Assembly: GCA_951406725.2 (NCBI GenBank)
Contig: OX597840.1
Coordinates: 39,122,001 to 39,186,000, forward strand
From: Octopus vulgaris
Lineage: Eukaryota
Length of the DNA: 64,000 nucleotides
Direction: 5' to 3'
Positions within the stretch are counted from its first letter, which is position 1. Each line of letters begins with the position of its first letter. Below, one piece after another: positions 1,785 through 54,738 of the stretch. The notes under the pieces were generated by a model. That model was not told the origin of the DNA. It ran no database searches and saw only the letters and a program-made list of their open reading frames with translations. The translations under genes were made by a program, and so were the position numbers.

Positions 1785-1970
1785 GGGAGAGTTTACGAAG
1801 ACAGGTGGTGTACAAAACAAACAGATGTATTAGTATAACGTTCAGGAATAGAAAAAGTCTTTTACGTTTCGAACCTACGCTCTTCTACAGAAAGGGACAC
1901 AGAAAAAACAAGGAGAGAAACAAAGAGAGAAAAAAATGCGTGTAGTGCCTAACGATCTATCATGGCGTCT
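1785..1970 (-). mobile_element. PLE-type terminal-repeat remnant (family A) carrying a variant HHR motif at ~1858-1894
   Basis: Abuts (TA)n; same sequence recurs at 33088-33263 and 40295-40515; minus strand reads CTTT-CTGTAGA-A-GAGCGTAGGTTC-GAAACGTA-AAAG. Confidence 0.6.
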
Positions 1971-3712: not shown

Positions 3713-4282
3713 ACACACAAACACACACATATATATATATGTCTGGGTTATAAGAAGTTTGCTTCTCAACCAGGTGCTTCCGCGTTCAGTACTTCTCTGA
3801 CGCACCCTAAGCAAGTGTCTTCTACTAAAGGCTTGATGGGACCAAAACCTAGTGAATGAATTTGGTAGACCGTCGTCTATGACGTTAAAATCCTGAAGAT
3901 GTTTTCAATATGTCGCTCTGTTTCTATTTACGCATATCTTACTGTTAAAGGGAGTAAGGTCAAAAAGTAAAAAAACTTTTTCATTTTCTCGAGCATCATA
4001 TTAATACACTTGCTAGTTGTTCATACACCTGTCTTCGTGTTGGCATTGGCTGTGCGGTAAGAAGCTTGGTTTCCAGTCACGTGGCATATTCGGCATGTGC
4101 CCTCTACTAAAGCGTTGTGAGTCATTTTCGTAGACAGAAACTGAAAGATGCCTTCACATATATATATATATATTTGCTTTAAGGAAATTTCATTCCCCAA
4201 TGACATTAGGCATTGAACCTGTGTTTCCTTCGATGTAACCGTCCCTCTACGAGGTTGACATGCATAAATAACTAAATACAAT

Positions 4283-4324
<42 letters not shown>

Positions 4325-5677: not shown

Positions 5678-6143
5678 GTACCAGTTACGCACTGGGGTCG
5701 ATTTAATCGACTTAATCCGTTTGTCTGTCGTTGTTTGTCCTCTCTGTGTTTAGCCACTTGTGGGTAGTAAAGAAATAGGTATTTCGTCTGTCGTTACGTT
5801 CTGAGTTCAAATTCCGCCGAGGTCAACTTTTCCTTTCATCCTTTCGGGGTCGATTAAATAAGTACCAGTTACGCACTGGGGTCGATGTAATCGACTTAAT
5901 CCGTTTGTCTGTCGTTGTTTGTCCTCTCTGTGTTTAGCCACTTGTGGGTAGTAAAGAAATAGGTATTTCGTCTGCCGTTACGTTCTGAGTTCAAATTCCG
6001 CCGAGGTCGGCTTTGCCTTTCATCCTTTCGGGGTCGATTAAATAAGTACCAGTTACGCACAGGGGTTGATGTAATCGACTTAGTCCCTTTGTCTGCCCTT
6101 GTGTTTCCCCTCTATGTTTAGCCCCTTGTGGTCAATAAAGAAT
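5678..6143 (+). repeat. Tandem array (184-bp period, ~2.5 units) of a headless SINE body
   Basis: GTACCAGTTACGCAC at 5678, 5862 and 6046; the unit matches SINE copies at 23390-23570 and 55984-56220. Confidence 0.85.
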
Positions 6144-6754
6144 TAAACAGGCGGGAAATTATGGTTTTGCAACACGTGATAAACTCTTCTCATTGCCAGA
6201 GTGAAAGAAGGTGCAGAAAGTCTTCATTCTCTTAAATAATATCCGTCTCCTCTCTGCCCACTACCAAGGAGACTGGTATATCTTATATCACTTGAAGTTT
6301 TGCTGCAAGATAACTCGATGTGAACGTTCTTTCCGCAAATATATATATCCATGGATGCATTCGAACCACGACCACCGAATCACTTATTTCTATGATTTTT
6401 TTCATGTAATCAATGCATCGTTCTGGTCTGTTTTTTCTTTAAACGGTAATTTGTAATTTGCGTTGCGTATCTGTTTGCCCTTGGCTTATGTTCAACAATT
6501 CTCGACATATTCGTGATCAACAGAGACAACTAATATATGTAATAGAGCAAACTGCAATAAAGAGATTTTTTTTCTTCTATTTTATTTCTTTTAAATCTCG
6601 AAACAAACACCATTCGTTTTGTTGCGTATTTGAGTCTAGGTGTAATATCAGATTTATTTCACATGATTGCAATATTATCTCTGTACTTTGTTTCGTTTTT
6701 CTTTTTCCATTTCCATTTAAAGTTAACATATTGACTTGTTATATACGAAAATGC

Positions 6755-22150: not shown

Positions 22151-22390
22151 CATTATTATTATTATTATTATCATCGTTATTATTTAAACGCAAACAATAT
22201 GAGAAATCCATATATGGACCCCTTGTATGCTAAAAATAGACGCCAAACCGTCTTACCACTAATTCTGCGTTCTCAACTTAGTAAAAGGCTTATATTTTTT
22301 CGATCTAGACAAACGAAATGAAATAAAAACAGCCCTTAATTCCATACCTCGTATGTTTTGAATTATGCTGGCTACTAGTTGAAATAGATA

Positions 22391-22786
22391 TCTTTATATA
22401 TAAAAGTCAAGTTGTCTGTCTGTCTCCTACGATTCAGATTCCTAACAACTCCCACATTTTGCGGTGCAGTTTAACCAAAAGCGGGTATCTTATAGTCGTG
22501 ATTCATATCGAGCCCTTCTGGGTATTAGCGCGCGTCTACGATGAGTCTACGATTTTAAAAATAATTTACCATCATGTTTTCCATTTTAATGCATTTTCTT
22601 CGCTATTATATAAGGGAAGTAACTCCCTAAAAATGTCTACGATGAGTCAACGATTTAAAAAAATTTACCATCATTTTTTTTCCATTTTTAAGGCATTTTT
22701 TTGCTATTCTTTGGCTATAACTCTCTAAAAATGCTTATATAGTTATTTCCCTTACAAACCCGAGCAACGCCGGGCGATACTGCTAG
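22391..22786 (+). mobile_element. Non-autonomous Helitron, complete (396 bp)
   Basis: A|TC 5' end, GC-rich subterminal hairpin CCCGAGCAACGCCGGG, CTAG|T 3' end, no TSD; second copy at 43816-44504. Confidence 0.9.
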
Positions 22787-25818: not shown

Positions 25819-26153
<335 letters not shown>

Positions 26154-43815: not shown

Positions 43816-44504
43816 CTAGCAGTATCGCCCGCCGTTGCTCGTGTTTGTAAGGGAAATAACTATATAGGCATTTTTAGAGAGTTATAGCCAAAAAATATCA
43901 AAAAATGCATTAAAAATGGAAAACAAATTAGGGTAATTTATTTTTTAAATCGTTGACTCATCGTAGACATTTTTAGAGAGTTACTTCCCTTATATAATAG
44001 CGAAAAAAATGCATTAAAATGGAAAAAATGATGGTAATTTTTTTTTAAATCGTTGACTAATCGTAGACATTTTTAGAGTTACTTCCCTTATATAATAGCG
44101 AAAAAAATGCATTAAAATGGAAAAAATGATGGTAATTTTTTTTTAAATCGTTGACTAATCGTAGACATTTTTAGAGTTACTTCCCTTATATAATAGCGAA
44201 AAAATGCATTAAAATGGAAAAAATGATGGTAATTTTTTTTAAATCGTTGACTAATCGTAGACATTTTTAGAGAGTTACTTCCCTTATATAATAGCAAAAA
44301 AATGCATTAAAATAGAAAAAATGATGGCATTTTTTTTTTTAATCGTAGACTCATCGTAGACGCGCGCTAATACCCAGAAGGGCTCGATATGAATCACGAC
44401 TATAAGATACCCGGTTTTGGTTAAACTGCACCGCAAAATGTGGGAGTAGTTAGGAATCTAAATCGTAGGAGACAGACACACAACTTGACTTTTATATATA
44501 AAGA
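43816..44504 (-). mobile_element. Non-autonomous Helitron with an expanded internal ~88-bp tandem repeat
   Basis: Same termini as 22391 (TC...CTAG, A|T target); unit AATGCATTAAAATGGAAAAAATGATGG...CCCTTATATAATAGCG repeated ~4.5 times over 43901-44360. Confidence 0.9.
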
Positions 44505-44880
44505 TATATATATATATATCGTTTGTATGTGTGGGTGTGTATTTCTCTGCTTGTGTGGGTGTGTGTGTGGGTGTGTATATCGGTGTGTGTATGTATGTAT
44601 GAATGTATGTGTGTGTCTGTGTCGGTTATTAACAGTCGAACTTGATGTAGATATAATGATATAAACGATTGTGTGTGAATAAATGTTAGGTTTATCTTAA
44701 CATCTATTTTGAGTTTAAACGTTAAAACCAAATTATTTTACTTTCTCTAGAAATTCTTGAGACGTAAAACACTCACGCACATACACACACAAAGAGACAC
44801 ACACACACACACACACAAATATATATATATATTTATATGGCTGTATGTGAATCTCTCTCTCTCGCAACACACACACACGC

Positions 44881-54612: not shown

Positions 54613-54738
54613 TAGATATATATGTATATATATATATAAAAGACTTGTTTTATTTATATTCTTGAGCGCCATACTAATACAATTGTTTGTTTATATTCCA
54701 CCTGCCTTCGTCTTTTGTTTATTTTCATAAAGCTTCCC

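Follow-up and report, generated by a model that had tools for sequence, protein, structure and literature searches.

A uridine at core position 6 in the minimal hammerhead motif of an Octopus vulgaris Penelope-like element

The A6U change described here is real and genome-wide. It was fixed long ago in the core of the minimal hammerhead of a Penelope-like element (PLE), intact young copies of which carry it. Three U6-core hammerheads were read directly in the window, a 64-kb stretch of Octopus vulgaris DNA, all three with U at position 6. As judged from its conservation, the U6 motif of this EN+ element is probably not a relic but still under selection for weak self-cleavage as a dimer, a reading to which we give a probability of about 55%.

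The three motifs lie where the first-pass annotation had placed them and read as written there, including the replacement of A6 by U in every copy; two are on the minus strand and one is on the plus strand (Table 1). The copy with C3 at 1890 has the core CUGUAGA, the triplet GUA and one G.U pair in stem II, the one with C3 at 33139 has the core CUGUGGA, GAGAC and the triplet GUU, and the one with C3 at 40412 combines the core CUGUAGA with the triplet GUG. The repeats holding them measure 170 to 480 nt each and have their 3' end against (TA)n; all three are 3' ends of an EN+ Penelope-like element, left by 5' truncation. When the window was scanned with a descriptor allowing any base at positions 6 and 7, only the three U6 motifs were returned. 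The earlier statement that only three copies are visible was thus right for such a scan and incomplete otherwise, an old U6 copy near 3942 and a tail-only copy at 54637 being present too. No hammerhead was found among the best 150 of the 367 matches of an Rfam scan of the window, nearly all of them microsatellite look-alikes of miRNA models, and the output of repeat finders was dominated by microsatellites. The window also holds further interspersed repeat families (100 to 300 nt) unrelated to the U6 family by BLAST, among them those at 5678-6145, 22384-22786, 43816-44511, 31363-31743, 42712-43139 and 59043-59403.

Table 1. Hammerhead motifs and the element copies assigned to them in the window.
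Feature	Position	Strand	Remarks
Minimal type I hammerhead, U6	1859..1894	-	C3 1890, U6 1887, H17 1863; A7/GUA subfamily
5'-truncated 3' end (pLTR) of Penelope-like element	1786..1967 (ends approximate)	-	3' end adjoins (TA)n
Minimal hammerhead, U6	33135..33170	+	C3 33139; G7/GUU subfamily; private A14G
5'-truncated element 3' end	33090..33262 (ends approximate)	+	Flanked by two (TA)n runs
Minimal hammerhead, U6	40381..40416	-	C3 40412; private G17
Longer 5'-truncated copy	40296..40772 (ends approximate)	-	~360 nt of 3' UTR upstream of motif, plus tail
Old decayed copy, same family	3915..4030 (ends approximate)	+	Core still U6, C3 near 3942
Tail-only copy	54637..54738	+	5' start coincides with predicted cut site
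Sister-lineage hammerhead	25954..25988	-	A6 kept, U4C (C4 at 25984), stem I GUUU/AAAC
Sister-lineage element around the 25984 motif	~25858-26053	-	Contains the U4C hammerhead
Decayed sister-lineage hammerhead	36195..36230	+	Sister copy at 36199

Compared with the canonical core (C3 U4 G5 A6 N7 G8 A9 / G12 A13 A14), the U6 family deviates at position 6 alone. It shows the features of a minimal type I PLE hammerhead, namely, stems I and II, the extra base 9.1, the G10.1-C11.1 pair and the palindromic 15.1-16.1, and a NUH triplet (GUA or GUU) is present in the majority of every subfamily. The first-pass annotation had described the core as CUGURGA plus an extra A and had called both departures non-canonical. 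This holds for U6 and not for the extra A, since an extra A between 9 and 10.1 and a 15.2/16.2 palindrome are conserved in Penelope minimal hammerheads (PMC4209133). With the extra A and the ACGU palindrome standard for that group, U6 is the sole unusual core letter. A register shift restoring A6 in CUGUAGAA was rejected by inspection of the sequence, since it breaks the C3-G8 pair and fails for other N7 states.

To tabulate position 6, the 2.8-Gb genome was searched on both strands with a pattern in which N7 and the 4-nt loop were left free. U6 gave 9,521 plus 9,407 exact matches, 18,928 genome-wide, compared with 356 for A6 and 584 for C or G; no match was obtained anywhere in the genome with a reversed control pattern, so that the motif cannot be attributed to chance. 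An A6 consensus was therefore not borne out, U6 accounting for 95.3% of the 19,868 exact-pattern copies. A core-free sample, in which a profile of the tail alone was run on 864 kb of unselected DNA, yielded 25 matches, 22 of them with the motif (19 U6 and 3 A6). H17 was present in 21 of these 22 copies. The non-NUH triplet GUG, correctly noted before in the window copy at 40381, and GAGAC were each found in 1 of the 22, in both cases the window's own copy, and are thus private decay. A descriptor search restricted to CUGANGA would overlook the hammerhead families that are most abundant in this lineage (~28,000 exact-pattern copies, U6 or C4).

The conservation of the motif was studied across nine layers of 4 to 39 copies each, defined by flank letters and ordered by inference from a flank tree; A6-pattern matches were excluded from the majorities, and 24 of the 174 copies in one sample were left unassigned. 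None of 34 motif columns changed across the nine layers, several of which had been sampled with patterns that preset some core letters; the sample drawn free of the core comprised 22 copies. In the flanks, 44 of 106 columns varied, with 68 changes in total (Fisher p=2.5e-5 versus the motif), flank variation being partly built into the subfamily definitions. G5, G8, A9, G12, A13, A14 and the C3-G8 pair were kept in all layers. By contrast, N7 changed five times (U,U,C,G,G,A,C,U,U), and H17 changed three times, between A and U only and never to G in a subfamily majority. These two variable columns are exactly those that the hammerhead consensus leaves free, a coincidence expected by chance once in 630. 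When the frame was compared with that of the young element, 46 of 154 four-fold sites differed in one middle-layer copy and 37 of 83 in two oldest-layer copies; after a rough decay correction, the neutral expectation would be ~10 and ~18 changes, respectively, in 34 columns.

The stems and core were thus more conserved than the flanks, and the hammerhead fold looks selected. On the alternative that the first-pass annotation had left undecided, a variant ribozyme or mobility without cleavage, this conservation favours a selected fold over a relic. Part of it may serve another function, because loop II (GUAG) is no less fixed than the core, and no change was seen in 54 of the 82 tail columns either.

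The repeat proved to be the end of an autonomous Penelope-like element, which was absent from the first-pass annotation. In longer copies, a low-complexity 3' UTR lies upstream of the motif, preceded by a frame ending in a GIY-YIG domain. A single frame of 965 codons, from the first methionine to the end of the EN domain, contains the RT and the C-terminal GIY-YIG. The RVT_1 match was above the cut-off (E=1.1e-7); that to GIY-YIG was weak and below it (E=0.0054), and the GIY-YIG motif itself was read directly. It is preceded by CSRPRCRTC, a CxxxxCxxC linker that conforms to the CX2-5CxxC linker of Neptune/Nematis. A Pfam search with a 359-aa fragment gave no match. The element protein has 294 homologues at E<=1e-30, the best being 53 to 59% identical. 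When the genome was searched with the protein, 113 of 24,065 candidates were scored, of which 111 were stop-free and dozens had equal scores.

Eleven long copies were fetched, and all 11 had an open frame of 1,024 to 1,214 codons over RT and EN. Two motifs ~4.5 kb apart were found in nine of them, and every motif read CUGUUGA with GUU. In the full-length copy L125, the two pLTRs were 99.8% identical, and the copies closest to it, L131 and L135, matched it at 99.3% and 99.8%, respectively; these identities suggest recent activity of the element. The youngest copies therefore carry U6, including both pLTRs of near-identical full-length copies. Among 30 loci found by the protein alone, the anchor used revealed a downstream motif in 22, always U6, and none in 8.

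The structural features were those of PLEs: pLTRs arising from partial tandems, a fixed 3' end, variable 5' truncation and inverted partners. The pLTR/body junction was present in 161 young copies, and L135-L136, with three junctions, are tandem source copies. At the unit junction of L125 (oriented 4310-4322), the element's 3' end continues into internal TA-rich sequence of the same kind as the (TA)n target, where target-primed reverse transcription is likely to be primed. In a young variant, the 3' tail contains a short duplication; this variant was seen at nine loci (L137, L146, L147, L152, L156, L157, L246, L262 and L267). At G000:C12 ~6.05-6.10 Mb, one insertion is present four times at ~15-kb spacing (L299-L302), corresponding to a segmental tandem duplication.

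The genome also holds a sister lineage with a U4C core (CCGACGA), a 3-nt loop II and stem I GUUU/AAAC, of which there are 9,310 exact-pattern copies; canonical-core sister copies number 4,756, some of which may be CpG decay of C4. In stem I, a compensatory change from C-G to G-C separates this lineage from the U6 family (3 of 11 rows; 8 pairs compared). No coding part of the C4 lineage was found in the 35 loci tested, save one neighbouring U6-family frame. As outgroups, 80 loci of related proteins in metagenome contigs were scanned with a descriptor allowing one change at position 4 or 6. Fifteen loci gave 18 motifs, some of which may belong to neighbouring elements; A6 was present in all 18, C4 in 2 and C17 in 15, and the extra A and the 15.2/16.2 palindrome were each present in 16. 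The A6 of all outgroup motifs, together with the canonical core in the sister lineage, indicates that A6 is ancestral. Single motifs at L341 and L334, near related PLE proteins in the metagenome contigs, also have C4 cores. A further hammerhead-like motif is repeated at L096:3302, L032:1832, L182:4679 and L174:5223 (minus); its core reads UUGAAAA, with U3 and A8 covarying.

The proposal that the change predates the visible amplification was supported. With positions 6 and 7 left free, the first 100 listed of the 745 oldest-layer copies comprised 77 U6, 14 C6, 8 A6 and 1 G6. Five CUGAUGA copies had suggested that this layer was an ancestral A6 subfamily; this was a sampling artefact, as the search with free positions 6 and 7 gave a U6 majority. 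An A6-revertant subfamily (CUGAGGA) was similarly rejected, since A6 was present in one of the first 100 copies listed among the 989 of the G7 layer. On a weak 48-row flank tree, the A6 and C6 copies of the oldest layer were unclustered (8 changes for 8 A6 rows and 12 for 14 C6 rows), and their excess may reflect either decay or old source diversity. In this layer (L446-L492), the C6 copies read CUGCUGA, the core assayed as A6C in PMC7151607.

The 5' start of the tail-only copy, at the predicted cut site, had suggested a cleavage footprint, which was not supported by genome-wide counts of 5' ends. In the young subfamily, 26 copies began at the cut site; the counts for two control sites were 11 and 33, and the comparisons gave p=0.02 for one control and 0.43 for the other. 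In the A7 subfamily, 7 began at the cut site versus 12 at the control, and among those 7, four came from one duplicated block and one was not a truncation. The sister lineage, used as a positive control, gave 34 versus 31 overall and 7 versus 8 for the canonical-type tail, the tail types being told by eye from the listed matches. Since the canonical-core sister shows no pile-up either, the 5'-end proxy is blind to cleavage here. As far as the genome-wide controls show, the tail-only copy is a truncation at TA microhomology. Among 30 junction-bearing copies, 25 extended 43 to 1,397 nt upstream of the cut site, through the motif, 2 ended <=26 nt downstream of it, and 3 were tail-duplication variants. 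Among the public sequencing runs listed as containing the element, none was on record as RNA.

Folding with a model that ignores tertiary energy predicted that U6 lets U4-G5-U6(-U7) pair with A14-G16.2, thus hiding the palindrome. The predicted probability of the G5-C15.2 pair in natural copies was 0.89 for U6U7 (n=19), 0.68 for U6A7 (n=13), 0.34 for U6C7 (n=8) and 0.15 for U6G7 (n=12), and it was 0.00 to 0.14 for eight natural A6 copies. Tandem arrays were also found, in which units of 450 to 492 nt, derived by four different deletions, each consist of the hammerhead, the tail and the start of the 5' UTR, with one U6 motif and a normal 3' end. The longest contains five motifs at 492-nt spacing plus an inverted 5' fragment (L273; G000:C8 ~18.600-18.603 Mb), and the L274, L261 and L278 arrays contain two motifs each. 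Such arrays fit the copying of small circles and would also fit unequal exchange or template jumps.

Under the preferred reading, two motifs would pair through their ACGU palindromes and so complete stem III, a mode of pairing described for these ribozymes. By distorting the uridine turn, U6 would slow cleavage; it is also predicted to pair with A15.1, and the monomer would then mask the palindrome more or less strongly depending on N7. Most transcripts would escape cleavage and be copied across the motif; a minority would be cut and possibly circularised. U6-family copies are inserted next to (TA)n. Position 6 is not all-or-none, given that a natural A6C hammerhead cleaves slowly (kobs below 0.1 per min; PMC3088659) and is largely rescued by Mn2+ (PMC7151607). 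A bolder extension, which we regard as tentative and would not bet on, is that the two sister lineages independently fixed core-weakening changes and out-amplified the canonical sister (~19,000 exact-pattern copies for A6U and ~9,300 for U4C, versus ~4,800), PLEs being selected for a damped ribozyme. If so, the U6-A15.1 pairing would act as a conformational brake on the dimerisation palindrome, retuned by repeated N7 changes.

It is also conceivable, although we hold it to be rather unlikely, that the motif no longer cuts and that its fold or palindrome is kept for a non-catalytic job, the element moving without self-cleavage. RNA dimerisation, RT binding, template jumping or an overlapping promoter or processing signal might each be such a job within this account. 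Mutagenesis of a type III hammerhead gave low activity for every single or double change in the CUGA turn other than a C-G swap, with no rescue in any case (PMC9901934). Even when their core is intact, minimal PLE hammerheads cleave slowly (PMC4209133); U6 may thus leave nothing useful. The firmly fixed loop II and the tolerance of a second core change in the 9,310 U4C copies of the sister lineage point the same way, and the tandem sources could give longer-than-unit templates without circles. Insertions do lack a cut-site footprint, but so does the canonical-core sister (7 versus 8 copies). Moreover, a non-catalytic role sits poorly with the restriction of the free columns to N7 and H17, with the absence of G at H17 from any subfamily majority and with the constancy of the catalytic G8 and G12. 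As further background, U4C is reportedly weak in vitro and yet sufficient for a viroid (PMC3088659), and Naiad PLEs have been reported to spread without canonical hammerheads (PMC8557442).

Compensation of U6 by loop II or flank contacts, by Mn2+ or by the element's own protein, with activity in the cell close to that of A6 relatives, appears improbable. The rescue of A6C by Mn2+ would agree with it, as would the failure of any reversion to sweep a layer (the single A6 among the G7-layer copies listed), and the repeated N7 changes could be fine tuning. However, no second-site change in the motif accompanies U6, the predicted U6-A15.1 self-pairing would oppose the active fold, and no double mutant rescued the turn in PMC9901934. 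That the motif is a dead relic carried in the pLTR, its conservation only apparent and due to sampling and short time, is very improbable and already largely refuted: part of the sampling did use core-fixing patterns, and old-copy alignments are noisy (terminal branches ~0.14), but core-free samples and samples with the 3' half free gave the same majority letters, and over this period many changes accumulated in the flanks and at four-fold sites.

The U6 family represents a natural experiment: a core change expected from mutagenesis to cripple cleavage is present in autonomous copies that are intact and nearly identical, yet every other hammerhead position has been conserved over long evolution. 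A comparison of U6, A6 and catalytically dead versions would separate a need for slow cleavage from a need for the fold alone. The cellular role of PLE hammerheads is described as unknown in reviews (PMC7761336, PMC8557442). According to its title, the study of Lünse, Weinberg and Breaker (2017; cited in PMC7761336 and PMC6765202) reports that small PLE-associated hammerhead variants cleave as dimers. No natural A6U was found in the searchable literature, although U6 motifs may be listed in Lünse 2017, in Arkhipova 2017 or in the supplements of PMC4209133, PMC3088659 and PMC8557442.

Among known systems, the U6 family corresponds to the minimal type I hammerheads of metazoan PLEs (Cervera and de la Pena 2014, PMC4209133). 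It shares with them the location in the pLTR on the sense strand, the 4-bp stem I, the extra nucleotide between 9 and 10.1, G10.1-C11.1, the palindromic 15.2/16.2, the lack of stem III and the predominance of solitary, truncated copies. The core variants noted from that work are U3-A8 and the D. virilis bulge, neither being U6, and it describes high motif variability within genomes, whereas the U6 family is frozen along one lineage save for N7 and H17. Similarly, the A6C motif of phage Bcep176 (Perreault 2011, PMC3088659; Naghdi 2020, PMC7151607) has a natural pyrimidine at position 6 and low but real cleavage that improves in Mn2+. That case, however, concerns C rather than U in a single phage intergenic motif, and the U6 motif is of the minimal dimer type, with ~19,000 retroelement copies.

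The element itself resembles the Neptune/Nematis-type EN+ PLEs (Craig et al. 2021, PMC8557442) in its RT, CX2-5CxxC linker and C-terminal GIY-YIG, as well as in its pLTRs from partial tandems, inverted 5'-truncated partners and microsatellite targets, a likeness based on linker and layout. Unlike the U6 family, those PLEs are described with canonical hammerheads. Finally, the arrays recall the non-LTR retrozymes (PMC7229834; bioRxiv 10.64898/2026.07.22.740005), with which the derived 450- to 492-nt arrays share one type I hammerhead per unit. The U6 arrays differ in being rare one-off deletion products, known here from genomic DNA, and in carrying the minimal U6 motif.
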